Source: Candidatus Aenigmatarchaeota archaeon | Lineage (GTDB): Archaea > Aenigmatarchaeota > Aenigmatarchaeia > CG10238-14 | Assembly (NCBI GenBank): GCA_026414305.1 | Contig: JAOAJH010000002.1 | Location: forward strand, 39,998-103,997 | Direction: 5' to 3' | DNA: 64,000 nucleotides | In this document: in pieces, positions 19,226 to 58,671 of the stretch | Layout of the letters: every line of letters starts with the position of its first letter | How positions within the stretch are numbered: the stretch's first letter is position 1 | The notes under the pieces: model-generated | What the model saw: only the letters and a program-made list of their open reading frames with translations | Told to the model about the DNA's origin: nothing | Databases searched by the model: none | Position numbers and translations under genes: made by a program

Positions 19226-20776
19226 TTGATGACAAAATATTATAACGGTGTTATAATGAAAGTAATGATGGTCAATTCACCTTTTAAAGTGAAAATAAGC
19301 AAAGATAGTAGATGGCCTGAATATACAAAATCTGGAACTTTGTATTATCCATTTTGGCTAGCTTATGCCACATCAGTTTTGATGAAACAGAGCGATCATA
19401 AACCGCTTCTTGTTGATGCTATAGCTAAAAAATTAAGTTTTGATGAAACAATGAAAAAGGCTAAAAAGTTTGGGCCAGATATGGTTGTAATAGAAACGTC
19501 CACACCAACTGCTTACACTGACGTAAAGTTTGCTGAATTTGTGAAAACTGAACTAGGGAATGATGTAAAAGTTGCAATGTCAGGTACATTAGCATCATCA
19601 ATGCCATTTGAATTGATAAAAATGTCTAATTCGATTGATTTTATTTTAAGGGGTGAATATGACTACACTGTTAGGGATTTGGCAGATAGTTTGGAAAAAA
19701 ACGGCAAAATTGAAAGTGTTGCTGGGATAACATATAGAACAAAGAAAGGTATATTTAACACACCACCAAGACCTTTGGTTAATGATCTGGATTCCATACC
19801 TTTTGTTTCTATAGCATATAAAAAATTTCTAAATGTTTTTGATTATCGATATGCTTTGGCTAGATATCCTATGCTACAAACTTGGACATCAAGAGGTTGT
19901 CCTGCAAGATGTAACTTTTGCCAATATCCACAGTCATTCACAATGCATTTGTTCAGAATGAGGTCTCCAAAAAATGTTGTTGATGAAATGGAATATATTC
20001 ATGAAAATTTACCTTCTGTAAAAGAAATATTCTTTGAAGATGACACTTTCACAATAAATCAGCAAAGAGTTCTTGATATATGCAAAGAGATAAAAGAAAG
20101 GGGATTGGATGATGCTGGTTTTGTTTGGTCGTGTAATGTTAGGGTACAAACAAAATATGAGACATTAAAAGCTATGAAAGATGCTGGATGCAGAATCGTC
20201 ATAGTAGGTTATGAATCAGGAAATGATCAGGTTCTAAGCAACATAAGAAAAGGTGCTACTGTAAGAGAGGCTAGAAGATTTACAATTGACGCCAAAAGGG
20301 CAGGTCTTCGTATTTTCGGCTGCTTTATGATAGGTTTGTCTGGTGATACAAAGGATAGCATAATGGATACTTTGGAATTAGCTAAAGATATGAACCCTGA
20401 CATGGCTTTCTTCCAACAAGCTGTGCCATTCCCTGGAACCGAGTTTTATGAGTGGGCAAAAAAGAATGGTTATTTGGTAACTGAAGATTGGAATCAATGG
20501 CTTGACAGCAATGGTAGGTTAAGATGTTTGGTAAGCTATCCTTGGTTGACAGCCGACGAAATAGATAAATTGAGGGATAAACTAATGTTAAGTTTTTATT
20601 TGAACCCAAAACACATAGCACAAACAATAGTAAAGAATTTGCATCCTCTGGAAGCATCAAGAGTTGTCGTGTATGCTACAGAATATCTGAAATATTTATT
20701 TAAGAGGAAATTAAATCCAGATGGTGTCGTAAAACCTGAAATAGAAAACTTTGTAGGCAATGATCAGGTTTCATAG
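19226..20776 (+). CDS. B12-binding-domain radical SAM enzyme (class B radical SAM). The start could be 19229 or 19256.
   Basis: N-terminal cobalamin-binding Rossmann region followed by the radical SAM cluster motif SRGCPARCNFCQY (CxxxCxxC). Confidence 0.85.
   Translation: MMTKYYNGVIMKVMMVNSPFKVKISKDSRWPEYTKSGTLYYPFWLAYATSVLMKQSDHKPLLVDAIAKKLSFDETMKKAKKFGPDMVVIETSTPTAYTDVKFAEFVKTELGNDVKVAMSGTLASSMPFELIKMSNSIDFILRGEYDYTVRDLADSLEKNGKIESVAGITYRTKKGIFNTPPRPLVNDLDSIPFVSIAYKKFLNVFDYRYALARYPMLQTWTSRGCPARCNFCQYPQSFTMHLFRMRSPKNVVDEMEYIHENLPSVKEIFFEDDTFTINQQRVLDICKEIKERGLDDAGFVWSCNVRVQTKYETLKAMKDAGCRIVIVGYESGNDQVLSNIRKGATVREARRFTIDAKRAGLRIFGCFMIGLSGDTKDSIMDTLELAKDMNPDMAFFQQAVPFPGTEFYEWAKKNGYLVTEDWNQWLDSNGRLRCLVSYPWLTADEIDKLRDKLMLSFYLNPKHIAQTIVKNLHPLEASRVVVYATEYLKYLFKRKLNPDGVVKPEIENFVGNDQVS
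19241..19257. promoter_or_regulatory. 17-bp palindromic motif TATAACGGTGTTATAAT, copy 2, abutting the radical SAM gene start
   Basis: Identical to 405-421. Flanks differ by one base (ATAAT vs ATATT). Confidence 0.4.
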
Positions 20777-32848: not shown

Positions 32849-35563
32849 CTATGTGAACTGTGGTATGTATTTTTTTGATCGTTTATTGTCTTTGTAAAAA
32901 ACAACATCGCCTCTACAATTGTTGCATTTACCGGAAAGCGGGACGCGCCTTAAAATATTGCCGCATGAGATACAGACAAAACCATCTATGTCATCCAAAA
33001 AGTCTTGCAAGTCGTCATTGATTTTTTTGCCTATTATATCAAAAAGCCCTGTTTGCTTGCCTGTACCCAAAAGCTCATTTTTGCTTATATTCAAAACATC
33101 AAAAACTCTCTCCAATGGTGGTAACAGCTGATTTTCTATGTAATAGTCAGAATCTATTGGTATTTTATGTTTTACAACATATTCGGGGTCTTCTGTCCTT
33201 TTTGAAACTTGCCCAGTGCCTTTGATGATTACATATCCTACTCTATCACCTATACCTGGTGCTGAAGTTGGATCTCTTTTTCTCATTTTTTTCAAAAGCT
33301 CTATGTGGGGCTGTACACCTTTGTATGTTCTCAATGATTTGGAAATGCTCTTTGTTATAACAAGCTTGCTTATATCCATCTTTCCTGTCCTTATATCATT
33401 TATCTTTGCTTTAACTATGTTCATAGCTTTTTCAACATCTTTTTCTTTTAGTATGACATTAAGCACTTCCTGAAGAGTTTCTGAAACCAAATTACACCAA
33501 TCTCTCCTCACAGTTTCTATCCCTTTTGTAACTATGGTTTCCTCGTATTTGCCGTTGTTCTCTTCAAAACTCCATCCTGCATATCTTTTTTTGCTTAAAA
33601 TAAGTAGTGTCTTGAAAACGCTTTCTATTTTCATTCTAAGTGCATATTTCATGTTGTTGTTTATCAAATCTGCTAAACTTGCGCCTATTTTGAATGCCTC
33701 AGAAACGTCATCAATGTCAAGTTTTACCATAACAGAATCTGTATCTGCATAAACAACCTTGTATTTTGTTTTAGACTCTACTATTTTCTTTGTTGTATTT
33801 ATAGTATCCCTGCCTGTTGTTGTTATTGTGTTTGCTATGTCAAGAACATACAATCTTGCTCTAACATAACCCATATAACCATAAAAGGCGTTAGCAACTG
33901 TTTTGAAAGCATATTGTTTTGCATACAAATATTTTTTTGTTTGCTCTGATTTTGTAGTCTTCATGTCCTTTTTCACTTTGTCTCTCATGTTTATTAAATA
34001 CTCTACTATACTTGGGACTATGCCTTTTCTTATGTTTGGTGATACAAATGCTGTACCAAGTGGTGATACGATTTTATCTATTTCATAATTTGGGTCTTTG
34101 AGTAATGTTGTAGGACATATATTTAACGAAATCATTATACTTGGGTACATTGACTTGAAATCCAGATAAACAACTGCTTTGTCATGAAAACCTATTTCAG
34201 GTTGAAGCACAAAGCCTCCTTTCAAAGTTGATCCCATTCTCTCCTCGTTTCTTTTATTTAACTCATAGTCATTTGGTTTGTTTGGTATTACAAATTCCCT
34301 GTTGTTGAACTCCCTCAGAAGAATGCTTTCTATTCTTGCTGCTTCACCGCCATCTAAAACATCTTGTAAAACAAGCCCGCTTACTTTTGATATTTCAAAA
34401 AATTTATCAAGCATGTTCATTTCTACAAGCATTCTGAATGGTAGTTCTGCGTCCTTTCTGCTGTAAGAAACCAGTTTTGAAAATTTGTCACCGTCATCTT
34501 TCCAAAAAAGACTTATTTCACTATGCGAAACGTCAACTTTAGTTTCACCTAATATAAGTTGTGAAACGTCTCCTAAACCATATCTTTTCAATCCTTTGTA
34601 AAGCCCAAATTTTGTTGTAGCCTCTTTGATAAGTGAATAAACATCAACTATAACCCTGCCTGGAATGGTTATGTTATATTTTGAAGAAAACTTTGAAACC
34701 ATTATAGATTTTTGAGAGCATCTGCCTATGCTTCTCGAAATATTATTTGCTTTTAGTCTTGCTTCAATATAAGGGAAATCAAAGTTTGTTATGTTATACC
34801 CAAGCAGTATGTCAGGATCATAATCATCTATTATTTTCTTGAACTCTTCAAGCATTTGTTTTTCATTATCAAAAAATAGCGTATTTTCAAAATGATTTTT
34901 TGATTTTTTGGCTATTAAAACAACATTATTTTTTCCTTTAAATGTTGGATAAAAGAAAAGGCTTATCATTATTATAGGGTCTTTTGTTGAGTCAGGCATT
35001 ACTCCTTCATCTGAGTAAGTTTCTATATCAATGCTAATGTATTTTAATGGCGCGTTTTCCTCCTTTTCTATTGGTTTGATTTTTTTTGCTGTCATAACCA
35101 AATCTGTTTTTACAGTAGTTGTTTTTGCACCAACACCTTCTACAACATACCAACCCATTCCAACAATATTTCTGTCTGCCATAAACCTGTTTCTGAAAAG
35201 TATGTCTGCTTCGTATACATCTTTCACAAAAGGTTTTTGTTTCAAGTCGTCCCTTAATTGTGAAACAAAAGAGGGGTTTTTCAATATTGTTTTTAGCAGC
35301 TTTGTTTTTTTATCTGAAAAAAATATTGGCAAAAACATTTCAACCATTTCAAAACCAAATAAAACAGGTTTGAATTTTTCTTCAATATATTTTTTTATTT
35401 GCTCTATTTTGTCTTCATCTGCATAAACATAGAAATATGGTAAAAAATCTTCCACAAAAACAGTTATAGATTTTTTGTCCATTGTTTTTCCAAAAAGCCT
35501 TATTGTTGGATGGTCATTAATCATTACATAATCTACATCTAAAACCTGAAATTCAACTTCCAT
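32849..35563 (-). CDS. polB: Family B DNA polymerase (PolB) with a C-terminal Cys4 zinc ribbon; no intein
   Basis: Exo I IDIETYS, Exo II NITNFDFPYI, Exo III YSRKDAELP. Pol motif A DFKSMYPSIM, motif B KxxxNAFYGYMG, motif C VYADTDSV. The C-terminus is CISCGNILRRVPLSGKCNNC. Confidence 0.95.
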   Translation of the reverse strand: MEVEFQVLDVDYVMINDHPTIRLFGKTMDKKSITVFVEDFLPYFYVYADEDKIEQIKKYIEEKFKPVLFGFEMVEMFLPIFFSDKKTKLLKTILKNPSFVSQLRDDLKQKPFVKDVYEADILFRNRFMADRNIVGMGWYVVEGVGAKTTTVKTDLVMTAKKIKPIEKEENAPLKYISIDIETYSDEGVMPDSTKDPIIMISLFFYPTFKGKNNVVLIAKKSKNHFENTLFFDNEKQMLEEFKKIIDDYDPDILLGYNITNFDFPYIEARLKANNISRSIGRCSQKSIMVSKFSSKYNITIPGRVIVDVYSLIKEATTKFGLYKGLKRYGLGDVSQLILGETKVDVSHSEISLFWKDDGDKFSKLVSYSRKDAELPFRMLVEMNMLDKFFEISKVSGLVLQDVLDGGEAARIESILLREFNNREFVIPNKPNDYELNKRNEERMGSTLKGGFVLQPEIGFHDKAVVYLDFKSMYPSIMISLNICPTTLLKDPNYEIDKIVSPLGTAFVSPNIRKGIVPSIVEYLINMRDKVKKDMKTTKSEQTKKYLYAKQYAFKTVANAFYGYMGYVRARLYVLDIANTITTTGRDTINTTKKIVESKTKYKVVYADTDSVMVKLDIDDVSEAFKIGASLADLINNNMKYALRMKIESVFKTLLILSKKRYAGWSFEENNGKYEETIVTKGIETVRRDWCNLVSETLQEVLNVILKEKDVEKAMNIVKAKINDIRTGKMDISKLVITKSISKSLRTYKGVQPHIELLKKMRKRDPTSAPGIGDRVGYVIIKGTGQVSKRTEDPEYVVKHKIPIDSDYYIENQLLPPLERVFDVLNISKNELLGTGKQTGLFDIIGKKINDDLQDFLDDIDGFVCISCGNILRRVPLSGKCNNCRGDVVFYKDNKRSKKYIPQFT

Positions 35564-35610: not shown

Positions 35611-36558
35611 TCATATTTCATTTACTTCTCTTGTGTGAAGATTAACTTTGAACCCTCTATCACCAACAAGTAGAATTGTTGTGCCTTTGTAGTTTTTATA
35701 TAATTTTTCACCAAAATCAGAAACTATGAAATCAGGTAAAATATCCAAAACAAAATCATCTTCAGAATAGCTTATTTTTGGATCAAATTCTTTAAGCATA
35801 TAGCGTTTTTTCAGAATATCGACAAAATAATCATTGTCTACATTTCCTATTTTTTCCAGGAATTTTTTTGGTATGACAAGAAATATCAAACCATCAAATT
35901 CTATTATTGTTGGGTTGTCAAAAGATGATGGCCTTATAAAAGATTGCTCGTTGTTTGAAACTTCTATCTCTAAATCTTCTTTTAGTTTTTTTACATCTCT
36001 GTTAAGTGGTATATCTGGATGTAACATTTTTTTGGCATAAAACTTTTCTTTTTCTCTAACACAACTAACTGCTATCACATCATCGTTTTGAAATTCATTC
36101 ATTTTTGATTTTAATATACCTTCAACATAAACCTCTATCTCACCTGTTAAATCCTCTATTATAAAAGACCTTGGTGTCTTGGAAAATATTATTCCTATGA
36201 TAGAAAACTCTTTAGTGTTTTCATTTATCTTGTTTATCGAGATTGCATTGAATCCACTCGAAATAAAAATATCTCGGATTTTTTCGTATTTTTTTGTAAG
36301 ATGAAAATTATAATCATCAATTTTAACAGTTTTTTCTTTTATTTCCCATTTTTTAATCTCTTTTAACTTTTGCTTTGGATCATTGTATTTGTTGATAATG
36401 TTATTAACATAATCATATGTCAAAAAGAATGGCCTTGTTTTCATTTTTTTTATTTCATTTATTATCAAATCTGGGTTTGTTTTTATAAGCATTAGAGAAT
36501 CTTTTGTAAGCTGCACTCCCATATCTAGAAATGTTTTTACTATTTCTTTCTCTTCCAT
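35611..36558 (-). CDS. DP1-like (PolD small subunit / eukaryotic B-subunit-like) protein, truncated and lacking a recognisable phosphoesterase core
   Basis: The N-terminal helical domain VKTFLDMGVQLTKDSLMLIK resembles the DP1 N-terminus (VKGLMKNGYLITPSAYYLL...). The OB-fold stretch SIIGIIFSKTPRSFIIEDLTGEIEVYV resembles the DP1 OB domain. It is only 315 aa with no GNHD/GHxH motifs. Its start overlaps the orc1 stop (TAATG). Confidence 0.45.
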   Translation of the reverse strand: MEEKEIVKTFLDMGVQLTKDSLMLIKTNPDLIINEIKKMKTRPFFLTYDYVNNIINKYNDPKQKLKEIKKWEIKEKTVKIDDYNFHLTKKYEKIRDIFISSGFNAISINKINENTKEFSIIGIIFSKTPRSFIIEDLTGEIEVYVEGILKSKMNEFQNDDVIAVSCVREKEKFYAKKMLHPDIPLNRDVKKLKEDLEIEVSNNEQSFIRPSSFDNPTIIEFDGLIFLVIPKKFLEKIGNVDNDYFVDILKKRYMLKEFDPKISYSEDDFVLDILPDFIVSDFGEKLYKNYKGTTILLVGDRGFKVNLHTREVNEI

Positions 36559-37772
36559 TATACCACTAGATTTTCGTTCAATATATTTCTTATTTTTTCT
36601 TTTATTGTTTCATTTAAATTAAGCATTATAACTCTCGTCCTACCATACCTTCCTAAAGATGTAACTTTGGCGTTTATTATACCTGTCATATCCAATTCAG
36701 ATATCAAATCAGATATTCTTCTCTGTGTTAAAGGAAACAGGCCTATTTCCTTGCATTTTTCTTGATATATGTCATAAACCTCTCCTGTTTGTATATCCTC
36801 TTTTTTTGTGTTTGAAAGTTCCAAAATGGCCCATAAAACAACTTTGGTTTGTTTTGGTAAGGATTTTGTTGATTCTATAACTCTGTCATAATCAATTTTT
36901 TCTTGGGCCATGTCAACATGTTTTTCTGTCACTTTTGAGTCGTTCATTCTTTCAGCTATTTCACCTGCAACCCTTAAAAGATCCAATGCCCTTCTAGCAT
37001 CACCGTGCTCTTGTGCAGCAAGTGCAGCACATTTTGGTATAACCTCCTCTGAAACAACACCGTTGTAGAATGCTATTTCTGATCTATTTTTCAATATATC
37101 GTGTAGTTGTGTTGCGTTATATGGAAAAAACAAAACCTCTTCTTCTCTCAATGAACTCTTTACTCTTGGGTCAAGAACTTCTATAAAATGAAGGTCGTTT
37201 GTTATGCCTATTATTGATATTTTTGAATTTTTCAATTCTTGATTTATTCTTGTTAAATTATAAAGAAATTCGTCTCCTATTTTTTCAACCAAAGCATCAA
37301 TTTCATCTAATATTATTATTACTGTGCTTTTTTCAGAATCCAAAGCATTAAAAAATGTCTGGTATATATAGTCTGTCGGCAGGCCTGTAGCAGGTAGCTC
37401 ATAACCCAAAAGACGAGACAACTCTGCCATTAACCTATATTCGGTGTCTGATATTTTTTTCATTTTGCAATTTACATACAATACTTTAATAGGATGGTTT
37501 CCTTGTTTTGATATTTTTTCTAATTCATCTGTTATATGTCTTGAAACAAGTGTTTTACCTGTACCTGTCAAACCGTAAATAAAAATATTGGAAGGTCTTC
37601 CCCCTTTTAATGAAGGTGCTAATATAGACGCTATTGTGTTTATTTCCTTGTTTCTGTGTTGTATTGTTTCTGGTATAAAATCAGATGTTAAGACGTCTCT
37701 ATTCTTAAAAATTGGTGTTGATTTTGATATATATTCTTGGAAAATGTGTTTTATTGTCTTCGGGTTGTCCAT
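36558..37772 (-). CDS. orc1: Orc1/Cdc6 replication initiator
   Basis: AAA+ Walker A GLTGTGKT, Walker B IIILDEID, and a C-terminal winged helix. Adjacent to an AT-rich repeat-bearing intergenic region. Confidence 0.9.
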   Translation of the reverse strand: MDNPKTIKHIFQEYISKSTPIFKNRDVLTSDFIPETIQHRNKEINTIASILAPSLKGGRPSNIFIYGLTGTGKTLVSRHITDELEKISKQGNHPIKVLYVNCKMKKISDTEYRLMAELSRLLGYELPATGLPTDYIYQTFFNALDSEKSTVIIILDEIDALVEKIGDEFLYNLTRINQELKNSKISIIGITNDLHFIEVLDPRVKSSLREEEVLFFPYNATQLHDILKNRSEIAFYNGVVSEEVIPKCAALAAQEHGDARRALDLLRVAGEIAERMNDSKVTEKHVDMAQEKIDYDRVIESTKSLPKQTKVVLWAILELSNTKKEDIQTGEVYDIYQEKCKEIGLFPLTQRRISDLISELDMTGIINAKVTSLGRYGRTRVIMLNLNETIKEKIRNILNENLVV

Positions 37773-37967
37773 AAAATGAAATTATTCCTATAGAAATAAA
37801 CCTTTTTCTATTGGAAATTATATGTTACACCCACCCCTTTGTTTCTTTTGGAAATTATCATATAATAAATATATAAAATGATATAACAGTATTATATTAT
37901 TATATTATTTGGTTGTTTCATCTTTTTTTTAAAAAAATATAAATTCCATTAGAAATAAACGGGTGTC
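37773..37967. other. Candidate replication origin (oriC) with ORB-like direct repeats flanking an AT-rich DUE
   Basis: TTCCTATAGAAATAAAC (37785-37802) and TTCCATTAGAAATAAAC (37944-37961) resemble the mini-ORB core TTCCAnnGGAAAC. Two TTnTTGGAAATTAT copies lie at 37806-37821 and 37843-37858. An AT-rich stretch runs 37859-37943. The region is immediately upstream of orc1. Confidence 0.55.
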
Positions 37968-38651
37968 TCACTCTATTAAATTTATGATTTTTGCTTCAGG
38001 TCTTTCTTTACTGATATCTACAAAACCAACATAACCCTCGGCAAATCTACCTGGATTTATTAATAATGTATTGTTAATGTAATCAATACCCCTAGCTTCA
38101 TGTATATGGGCAGAAACAGCAATAATCGGCGAATATTTTTCTATAAAATTTCTTACAACTCTTGATCCAACATGCATACCTGTAGTTATATAATCCAACT
38201 TTGTGTCTATTGGTGGTGTATGTGTTATCTGAACTTTTTTATTAACTTTCATTACATCTATAAATGCCCTTTCTAACCCTTTTTTTATTTCTTCATCTTT
38301 TGGTTCGTATGATGTATTAAAAGGTGTTTGTGCTCCACCAAAACCATAAAAACCAACATTGTTTATGATTTTACCTTTACCATGTACACTTATATTTTCC
38401 TTGTCTATAAGATCAATAATATTTTTATCGTCATTGTTTCCAGGCACAGCAACGACAGGTTTTTTGAATATTCTTAACTCCTCTATTATTATTTTGGCAA
38501 CATCTTCTTGTGTGAATCCCTTTGGTGTATTTATGTCACTAAAATCACCAGCATAAATTATCACATCAAACTCATGTTCAGACAATACGTCAATGAACGT
38601 GAACATGTTTTCTATATCATTGTGGTTGTCACTTAATACAAGTAGTTTCAT
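37968..38651 (-). CDS. Calcineurin-like metallophosphoesterase
   Basis: LLVLSDNHND...VIIYAGDFSD...GNNDD...HIHE metallophosphatase motifs. Confidence 0.75.
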   Translation of the reverse strand: MKLLVLSDNHNDIENMFTFIDVLSEHEFDVIIYAGDFSDINTPKGFTQEDVAKIIIEELRIFKKPVVAVPGNNDDKNIIDLIDKENISVHGKGKIINNVGFYGFGGAQTPFNTSYEPKDEEIKKGLERAFIDVMKVNKKVQITHTPPIDTKLDYITTGMHVGSRVVRNFIEKYSPIIAVSAHIHEARGIDYINNTLLINPGRFAEGYVGFVDISKERPEAKIINLIE

Positions 38652-38956
38652 TCTATCACCTTTGTTTTTATTTCAAAACCATTGTTTTTTGTTTTTATCC
38701 ATATTTCTATTGGTATATTATGTTCCTTTGCAAACATTTCTATATTTTTAAATTGCACCTTTTCTCTGGGTTTTATGTAAAACTTTTCTTTTTTTGTGCC
38801 CTTTACTTCAATTATCTTTTCTATCTTGTTTTGGTTGGGTGAAAGCACAATAAAATCTGCAGATTGCCCTATGGCCAGTTTCAGCACATTTTGTTTTCCG
38901 TATTTTTCTATCAACTTTTGTTTTACAAAATACTCATATCTATATCCTTTATGCAT
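38648..38956 (-). CDS. hjc: Holliday junction resolvase Hjc-like PD-(D/E)xK nuclease
   Basis: KGYRYEYFVKQKLIEKYG...ADFIVL...IEVKGTKKEKFYI aligns with Hjc (KGAQAERELIKLLEKHG...VDLVAG...IEVKVTKKDHLYV). Confidence 0.7.
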   Translation of the reverse strand: MHKGYRYEYFVKQKLIEKYGKQNVLKLAIGQSADFIVLSPNQNKIEKIIEVKGTKKEKFYIKPREKVQFKNIEMFAKEHNIPIEIWIKTKNNGFEIKTKVIE

Positions 38957-52775: not shown

Positions 52776-53308
52776 TCAAGATCAATTTCATATATTGTCT
52801 TGTAATGTGGCCCACTTTCAGTTAAAATACTTTCAACAAGACTTATTTTTTTAACTTGAAAGCTTCCTATAGAAATGTTTTTGTTTTTTTCAATAAAATC
52901 TTTGACCTTTTTTTTATCTATTACATCTTTGACCCTGCACAAAGTCATTTTTGTTTGGTTGTGATATTCGCCGCCTATCGAACTTCCTACTGTTTTTATT
53001 AAATTTTCTAAATTCCCGCCGCTTTCAGTACTTATACCGATAACTCTTATGTAATTGTCTGAAGGTATTGTTTTAAGACCTTTTAAATAAACTTGAAAGC
53101 TTTTCCAACCACTCAGGTTATACATAACTGTTTTTATTTTTTCTATGTTGTTTTCATCTAAATTACCCAGGAATGTTAATGTAAGATGAAGATTTTCAGT
53201 CTCAACCATTTTGCATTTTATTGGGAGCTTTCTAATCTCCTCCTGGAGCTTTCTAATTCCCCCCTTTAGCATTTCAGGTACCCATATACATACGAACATT
53301 CTTTTCAT
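52772..53308 (-). CDS. ligT: 2'-5' RNA ligase LigT / 2H phosphoesterase
   Basis: VETENLHLTLTFLG (HxTx motif 1), YIRVIGISTE, and ...TKMTLCRVK (motif 2 region). Aligns along its whole length with archaeal LigT. Confidence 0.8.
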   Translation of the reverse strand: MKRMFVCIWVPEMLKGGIRKLQEEIRKLPIKCKMVETENLHLTLTFLGNLDENNIEKIKTVMYNLSGWKSFQVYLKGLKTIPSDNYIRVIGISTESGGNLENLIKTVGSSIGGEYHNQTKMTLCRVKDVIDKKKVKDFIEKNKNISIGSFQVKKISLVESILTESGPHYKTIYEIDLE

Positions 53309-58575: not shown

Positions 58576-58671
58576 GCAGGGGTAGCCAAGCGGCCAAAGG
58601 CGCAGGACTTAAGATTTAATAGGAAATCCTGTCTCTTAGTGAGTTCGAGAGTTCGAATCTCTCCCCCTGCA
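58576..58671 (+). tRNA. tRNA-Leu (anticodon TAA) with a 12-nt intron after position 37 and a long variable arm. CCA is not encoded.
   Basis: Acceptor GCAGGGG/CCCCTGC. Anticodon stem CAGGA/TCCTG with loop CTTAAGA plus inserted ATTTAATAGGAA. T-arm GAGAG-TTCGAAT-CTCTC. Confidence 0.8.

Follow-up and report, generated by a model that had tools for sequence, protein, structure and literature searches.

The 195-nt intergenic gap at positions 37773-37967 of the analysed DNA (64 kb in full length, here called the window) lies directly upstream of an orc1/cdc6 gene and is, with a probability that we put at roughly 80%, the site at which chromosome replication starts in an Aenigmatarchaeota (DPANN) archaeon, an origin that by its sequence would be of the widespread oriC1/Orc1-1 type. 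All sequence elements from which orc1-associated origins are predicted in the literature are found in the gap (PMC3528665). The first-pass annotation had proposed an archaeal oriC layout beside orc1, and this is supported by origin recognition boxes (ORBs), an AT-rich duplex unwinding element (DUE), the conservation of both in relatives and the adjacent gene for an Orc1-1-class initiator. The core origin is a textbook arrangement and as such unsurprising, and generic predictors such as Ori-Finder would flag the gap by design. New here are a conserved central palindrome and a compact ORB with a closer G-run.

The gap has a GC content of 20.5% and the whole window one of ~30%. It abuts the orc1 start at 37772 and is bounded by the stop codon of a metallophosphoesterase gene on one side and by the orc1/cdc6 start on the other. 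The genes around it are, in transcription order:

37968-38651, minus strand: metallophosphoesterase gene, first in transcription order, before the gap
36558-37772, minus strand: orc1/cdc6 gene; its product is an initiator of the Orc1-1 class with 404 aa and with Pfam Cdc6 lid and winged-helix domains
35611-36558, minus strand: 315-aa protein, N-terminal half like the PolD small subunit; its start overlaps the orc1 stop
32849-35563, minus strand: family B DNA polymerase (polB), after the dp1-like gene

For the protein encoded at 35611-36558, the first 197 residues align with the N-terminal half of the PolD small subunit (NCBIfam NF003118) at an E of 1.9e-17 and 63 bits, which is far under the 445-bit cut-off of this family, and no Pfam match was found for the 315-aa protein. 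The product may be a DP1-like protein that is truncated in its C-terminal half and paired with the family B polymerase, a pairing that recalls the eukaryotic B-subunits. Two genes upstream of the origin a 102-aa ORF (38648-38956, minus strand) is located that has no family match; a D...EVK pattern in it recalls nucleases of the PD-(D/E)xK type, Hjc among them, which is a visual impression only. Further replication and repair genes lie within the 64-kb stretch, so that it holds genes for RPA-like, RadA, PolB and Orc1 proteins: radA (Rad51 family) and the gene that it follows form a pair at 1393-2370 and 444-1400, and the homologue of the gene before radA in relatives (L161/L162, 1-1456) has RPA-like domains (Rep_fac-A_C). 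With Rfam a second tRNA of 96 nt was found at 58576-58671 (49.6 bits), immediately upstream of the tRNA-Leu predicted by ARAGORN, which missed it; its length suggests an intron. In the gap itself no known RNA family comes near any Rfam threshold, and a T7 run follows the upstream gene.

The Orc1 protein matches the Pfam families Cdc6_lid (1e-29) and Cdc6_C (5e-28) and AAA domains. Its best solved relatives are Sulfolobus solfataricus Orc1-1 (2qby_A, 2.4e-110) and Aeropyrum pernix ORC1 (2v1u_A, 6.6e-100), the two Orc1 proteins that were crystallised on ORB DNA, while the match to Orc1-3 is much weaker (4.7e-50) and the Orc1-2-type proteins are likewise far. For S. solfataricus Orc1-1 it was shown that R341 contacts bases, that R365 is the wing arginine and that G120-L121 belong to the ISM (PMC3089459). 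With the offset counted on an alignment with the solved relatives, these residues correspond to R351, R375 and G130-L131 in the protein analysed here; in 25 homologues R351, R375 and G130 do not vary, and L131 hardly does. As judged from its sequence, the adjacent initiator is of the Orc1-1 class, with the predicted DNA-contact residues kept. The nearest Orc1 homologues come from Aenigmatarchaeota MAGs. An identical Orc1 sequence is deposited at NCBI on a 47-kb contig labelled 'candidate division WOR-3 bacterium', and an identical 49-aa ORF is present on a 178-kb contig labelled 'Candidatus Aenigmarchaeota'; since all genes examined here are archaeal, the WOR-3 label seems to result from a binning error.

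Two pairs of repeats had been described for the gap and both are present at their positions: ATTCCTATAGAAATAAAC (37784-37801) and ATTCCATTAGAAATAAAC (37943-37960) are identical at 16 of 18 positions, and TTTCTATTGGAAATTAT (37805-37821) and TTTCTTTTGGAAATTAT (37842-37858) at 16 of 17. They had been taken as two separate families, which did not hold, since the second is the reverse complement of the first; it is a single motif in two orientations, and TTCC-N4-GAAA is common to all four sites:

37785-37796, plus strand: site A, mini-ORB core, TTCCTATAGAAA
37805-37816, minus strand: site B, mini-ORB core, TTCCAATAGAAA
37842-37853, minus strand: site C, ORB core, TTCCAAAAGAAA
37944-37955, plus strand: site D, ORB core, TTCCATTAGAAA

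The ORBs and mini-ORBs of Pyrococcus have TTCC and GAA as their invariant parts (PMC1904270), and both parts, 4 nt apart, are found at four sites within the 195 nt. The base preceding GAAA is A, not G, in all four copies. The core TTCCWWWRGAAA has five matches in 64 kb, where 0.86 are expected and none of 100 shuffles reached five, and four of these five fall within the gap; the fifth, at 52864, is put down to chance, as it lies inside a coding ORF and has a flank score of ~0. The looser pattern TTCCNNNNGAA gives 16 matches in the window (10.8 expected), four of them in the gap, and forms no cluster elsewhere in the 64 kb. The repeats were furthermore compared with 1000 dinucleotide-preserving shuffles of the 195-nt gap: an 18-mer pair with at most two mismatches appeared in 16 of the 1000, a 17-mer pair with at most one mismatch in five, and at least two TTCCN4GAA sites in four, while the gap itself has four such sites.

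Two of the four sites extend beyond the core. The euryarchaeal ORB consensus is GTTCCAGTGGAAAC-AAA----GGGGG (PMC1868953), and sites C and D carry the distal elements of this consensus in a more compact form:

37830-37853, minus strand: ORB C, full origin recognition box, TTCCAAAAGAAACAAAGGGGTGGG
37944-37965, plus strand: ORB D, full origin recognition box, TTCCATTAGAAATAAACGGGTG

ORB D is made up of the mini-ORB core TTCC-N4-GAAAT, followed by AAA and the G-run GGGTG (37961-37965); its end and the stop codon of the upstream gene are 3 nt apart. The G-run of ORB C is GGGGTGGG, seen on the plus strand as CCCACCCC at 37830-37837. The distal G-run is thus present with altered spacing, starting ~5 nt nearer to the core than in the published consensus (PMC1868953). 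ORBs C and D are inverted, with their TTCC ends facing inward toward the 90 AT-rich nucleotides and their G-runs outward, and form a core unit of 136 bp from G-run to G-run. An independent matrix, built only from relatives with <66% Orc1 identity and scanned over the 64-kb window, ranked ORB C first (27.5 bits) and ORB D second (22.8 bits), the next match having 15.1 bits. When only the flanks are scored, C reaches 13.3 and D 8.6, and the other fourteen core matches, A (-0.6) and B (-0.4) included, do not exceed 0.9, so that the core of A and B fits an ORB while their flanks do not. Because the flank scores separate them in this way, C and D are regarded as full ORBs and A and B as core-only mini-ORBs. 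The first-pass annotation had mini-ORB elements bracketing the DUE, of which the bracketing stands, whereas the bracketing pair are the full ORBs C and D with their G-runs and not mini-ORBs.

The arrangement was compared across 160 loci of Orc1 relatives collected from GTDB genomes and JGI metagenomes with flanks of up to 10 kb, mostly from Aenigmatarchaeota and Nanohaloarchaea and some from other DPANN lineages; 153 of them have a usable start. Enrichment of the repeats over other regions, on which the earlier proposal had been made to depend, was found in these 153 loci: TTCCNNNNGAA occurs 0.73 times per 100 nt at -300 to -1 of orc1 and 0.028 times elsewhere, which is a 26-fold difference, and control motifs in which the spacing is 3 or 5, or letters are swapped, are not enriched in the same loci. 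In relatives of higher GC content the motif takes the canonical form TTCCACAGGAAA or TTCCAGTGGAAA, and the extended consensus of 367 upstream sites contains a G-rich element at +16 to +20 (G16 G17 n G19 T20). For a footprint, the gap was aligned with 12-13 relatives of 67-84% Orc1 identity. Five blocks proved to be conserved (ORB D, the palindrome, ORB C, a TATA-like box and the B/A pair), and the AT-rich spacers between them differ in sequence and length. The ORB D columns ACCCnTTTATTTCnnnnGGAA (orc1 strand) are conserved, and in the ORB C block TTCCnnnnGAAAnAnnGGGG the GAA and GGGG columns are invariant. The layout recurs in Nanohaloarchaea and in further Aenigmatarchaeota. In some relatives a second, small cluster of ORB-core matches is present 3.4-5 kb downstream of the orc1 start (L004, +5092..+5150; L039, +4501..+5081; L062, +3371..+3746; L063, +3461..+3482; L078, +3426..+3527). 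These could be secondary Orc1-binding clusters like the Pyrococcus dp1 cluster; no equivalent second cluster was found in the window.

The DUE covers the space between the two full ORBs and contains the palindrome:

37854-37943: duplex unwinding element (DUE), 90 nt, from the TTCC end of ORB C to that of ORB D
37882-37896: conserved palindrome TATAACAGTATTATA, inside the DUE, with one arm mismatch compared to its family

An almost pure A/T stretch of ~85 bp had been noticed here, and indeed 37859-37943 has a GC content of 10.6%. By nearest-neighbour free energy the least stable 85-nt duplex of the whole window is 37860-37944, and the stretch that holds it is bracketed by the inverted ORBs C (minus) and D (plus). 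In the relatives the inter-ORB stretch has a median GC content of 0.22, compared to 0.42 for the locus. Its sequence and length vary among the 12-13 aligned relatives, the palindrome excepted. Single-strand folding of the DUE is no better than that of shuffled sequences (z = -0.38).

Between the origin core and the orc1 start are the mini-ORBs A and B, together with a TATA-like box:

37818-37825, minus strand: TATA-like box ACATATAA (orc1 strand), ~50 nt upstream of the orc1 ATG

Mini-ORBs A and B point toward each other, with the 8 nt AAGGTTTA between them, and 12 nt separate A from the orc1 start codon. Both form a 32-bp block, TTCCAATAGAAAAAGGTTTATTTCTATAGGAA, which was also detected as an inverted repeat (I9) and is the best conserved part of the gap: in the 12-13 aligned relatives the A columns TTTATTTC...AGGA are invariant and B is nearly invariant as TCCAATAGAAA. 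The TATATA block between ORB C and mini-ORB B is conserved in the same relatives, with ATA at 37821-37823 invariant, and the TATA-like box is a putative promoter element of orc1. The convergent A/B pair between this box and the ATG may be an autoregulatory site, at which Orc1 would repress its own gene and couple the level of the initiator to the occupancy of the origin.

The palindrome in the DUE was missed by the first-pass annotation. Its family form is (A/T)TATAACAnTGTTATA(A/T) with arms of 7-1-7 and the consensus TATAAYAnTGTTATA, and in the footprint it appears as the block TATAAYAnnGTTAT, in which the columns TATAA...GTTAT are invariant in the 12-13 relatives. From its centre it is 36 nt to ORB C and 55 nt to ORB D, so that a short motif is placed about midway between inverted ORBs in the DUE, as in the ucm module of Sulfolobus. 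Upstream of orc1, TAACNNNGTTA occurs 0.267 times per 100 nt and elsewhere 0.0051 times (52-fold enrichment); it was found in 89 loci, often as two copies ~100 nt apart. Control palindromes with a centre of 2 or 4 nt are flat, with no enrichment upstream of orc1, and an unbiased count of 8-mers upstream of orc1 gave almost exclusively parts of the palindrome at the top of the enrichment. The 8-mers TTCATATG and TTCATGTG, likewise enriched upstream of orc1, were considered separately and traced in part to reverse ORBs and in part to a lineage-specific palindrome, GTTCATATGAAC, which is absent from the window. In 52 cases the palindrome is flanked by inward-facing ORBs at median distances of 43 and 36 nt and with a median inter-ORB distance of 84 nt, the values in the window being 55, 36 and 90 nt. 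The palindrome-ORB distance is constrained, with an interquartile range of 34-46 nt on one side, while the distance to the ATG has an interquartile range of -214 to -122 and extremes of about -75 to -290. The palindrome occurs in loci of Aenigmatarchaeota and of Nanohaloarchaea (Nanohaloarchaeota) and was missing in the few loci of Undinarchaeota, of Archaeoglobi and with a Woesearchaeota label that were compared. Relatives at ~63-65% Orc1 identity have another palindrome, (G)TTCATATGAA(C) or TTCATGTGAA, beside the ORBs and just before the TATA box (at ~-98 in L094, L097, L099, L103, L115 and L118; at ~-50 to -95 in L098, L105, L116 and L092), and this one is also absent from the window.

Two more copies of the central palindrome are present in the window, both as ATAACGGTGTTAT, at 405-419 and 19241-19255, at or beside gene starts. 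The first is found at a 49-aa zinc-ribbon ORF downstream of radA, where it is placed between the TTTATAAA TATA box and the ATG, and it is conserved in the sole relative having that ORF (L162, 1479-1493); the second immediately precedes the ATG of a B12-binding radical SAM gene. Outside origins strict copies are rare: 25 were counted in 1.13 Mb, nine of them in the 10% that is free of long ORFs, a density far below that of the 329 UBP peaks reported for Sulfolobus.

Several roles of the palindrome were considered and set aside. A function as orc1 promoter is disfavoured, as the distance to the ATG is variable while that to the ORBs is constrained. Xer/dif sites consist of two inverted arms with a central region of 6-8 bp and occur in one copy per chromosome; the palindrome has arms 1 nt apart, often two copies per orc1 and three copies in 64 kb, and is not regarded as such a site. 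A role as hairpin or cruciform is unlikely given a predicted single-strand stability of only -1.5 to -3.2 kcal/mol, and this weak hairpin potential makes recognition as duplex DNA by a dimer likelier. As candidate binder the 49-aa zinc-ribbon protein (250-399) was considered, since the position of the palindrome between its TATA box and its ATG suggested autoregulation; it was rejected, as it has two homologues in 5.8 billion proteins and thereby a far narrower spread than the palindrome. The palindrome is probably a binding site, in the sense of a candidate site, of a dimeric factor. Going beyond this, we tentatively propose, at somewhat less than even odds, that the origins of Aenigmatarchaeota and Nanohaloarchaeota are tripartite (ORB-palindrome-ORB) and that TATAACAnTGTTATA is bound by a dimeric protein needed for origin activation.

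In analogy to Sulfolobus oriC1, one Orc1 monomer would bind to each full ORB with fixed polarity, the two bound initiators would recruit MCM onto the AT-rich DNA between the ORBs, and bidirectional replication would start in this stretch. The dimeric factor on the palindrome would act at the centre of the origin in the manner of ucm and UBP, for which kinship is not required.

Among the alternatives, the one that survives best, although we consider it unlikely, is that the gap is only the control region of an orc1-dp1-like-polB operon in which Orc1 autoregulates, with replication starting elsewhere or by recombination-dependent initiation. It is in line with the position of the best conserved block, A/B, between the TATA-like box and the ATG and with reports that Orc1 paralogues can regulate transcription (Orc1-2, PMC9738581) and that origin-independent replication occurs in archaea, Thermococcus kodakarensis being able to replicate without Cdc6 or its origin (PMC5663688). 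It also agrees with the lack of a skew signal over 64 kb: sliding GC and AT skew run with gene orientation, without a switch at 37.9 kb, in a window that is too short for this, and in a regression over 61 genes orientation dominates, the side term at 37870 being not significant for GC skew (F=2.0) and third-position AT skew giving the only hint (F of about 5, 4.8, uncorrected). Also speaking against the origin reading are that not every orc1 gene has an adjacent active origin (PMC1868953), that the gap is short beside those of haloarchaeal origins, that the G-run lies nearer to the core than in the consensus and that A precedes GAAA in all copies. However, control of an operon does not explain two full ORBs with outward G-runs around the least stable duplex at a conserved spacing of 70-100 nt, nor a palindrome whose distance to the ORBs is constrained while that to the ATG varies widely. 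Both roles are, furthermore, compatible and not exclusive. In characterised archaea the orc1 promoter adjoins the origin.

Clearly less probable still is that the repeats serve ordinary transcription factors, one or several, that have no relation to Orc1, the AT stretch being only promoter and terminator DNA between two genes on the same strand. At 30% GC, AT-rich gaps with repeats are common, the T7 run could be the terminator of the upstream gene, and the palindrome also adjoins two unrelated genes. Against this, the motif, with its AAA and its G-run, fits the ORB consensus from the literature (PMC1868953), it tracks orc1 over phylum-level distances and turns canonical in relatives of higher GC content, and no motif cluster was found in the window outside the gap. 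That the repeats are a chance similarity in low-complexity AT-rich DNA is hardly credible: TTCCNNNNGAA is not enriched over the window as a whole, but a quarter of its sites lie in 195 nt, shuffles give such repeats in 0.4-1.6% of cases and the blocks are conserved in relatives.

In a literature search no paper was found on ORB/DUE anatomy or on a dissected origin for Aenigmatarchaeota, Nanohaloarchaeota or other DPANN, and no description of the central palindrome was found. DPANN archaea are not yet genetically tractable. The ~136-bp core, with elements defined to the base and >150 related loci, provides material for the in vitro analysis of Orc1 and of MCM loading, and it is useful for setting the start coordinate of closed genomes and for estimates of growth rates from metagenome read depth. 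The palindrome is the part that no specialist would predict and, in the light of the 2025 Sulfolobus study (PMC12141716), it constitutes a testable candidate analogue in a distant lineage.

Compared with known systems, the gap shares with haloarchaeal oriC1 the inverted ORBs with a terminal G-run around a primary DUE beside orc1 (PMC1868953, PMC3528665). It differs in that no extended halophile G-string is present, in that it has a single DUE and in that its 195 nt compare to intergenic regions of roughly 690-2100 bp (PMC1868953). With the oriC of Pyrococcus and other Thermococcales it has in common the combination of full ORBs and mini-ORBs (13 bp in Pyrococcus) with invariant TTCC and GAA at a 4-nt spacing, and the location of the origin directly upstream of cdc6/orc1, which is followed by dp1, here by a dp1-like gene (PMC1904270). 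Unlike in Pyrococcus, the origin is far smaller with four sites and a G-run nearer to the core, the downstream polymerase is of family B and not PolD, and no TTCCN4GAA was found within the dp1-like gene (35611-36558), where Pyrococcus has a second ORB cluster.

Among well-studied origins the best match is Sulfolobus oriC1, whose Orc1-1 is the closest solved relative of the initiator (2qby_A). There, the inverted ORB2 and ORB3 surround an AT-rich DUE in a unit of 130 bp, with one Orc1-1 monomer per ORB and a defined polarity (PMC12141716). Likewise, inverted ORBs flank an AT-rich DUE beside the orc1-1 gene in the window, Orc1 binding being an expectation here, and the compact core measures 136 bp. 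Differences are the AT-rich variant TTCCWWWAGAAA of the ORB core and that no third upstream ORB was seen, in place of which a convergent mini-ORB pair is present at the putative orc1 promoter. Midway between the Sulfolobus ORBs the ucm is located, which is essential for firing and is bound by UBP, a protein that also binds >300 other sites (329 peaks) and contacts MCM at its N-terminal domains (PMC12141716). In analogy, the palindrome is a short conserved motif near the middle of the DUE that is also found at a few other genomic sites. In contrast to ucm, which has 11 bp and is bound by UBP as a monomer, it is a 15-bp dyad, which suggests a dimer, and its extra copies are few (three copies in 64 kb), compared to >300 sites in Sulfolobus. 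The ubp gene is reported only from Sulfolobales and Desulfurococcales, and the authors of that study ask about analogues in other lineages (PMC12141716). Because the dyad symmetry and the reported restriction of ubp speak against homology, the palindrome is regarded as analogous to ucm and not counted as a member of this module. If the tripartite reading is true, the palindrome would have evolved independently as a counterpart to the ucm/UBP module of Sulfolobus and would answer the question on analogous origin factors in divergent archaeal lineages (PMC12141716).
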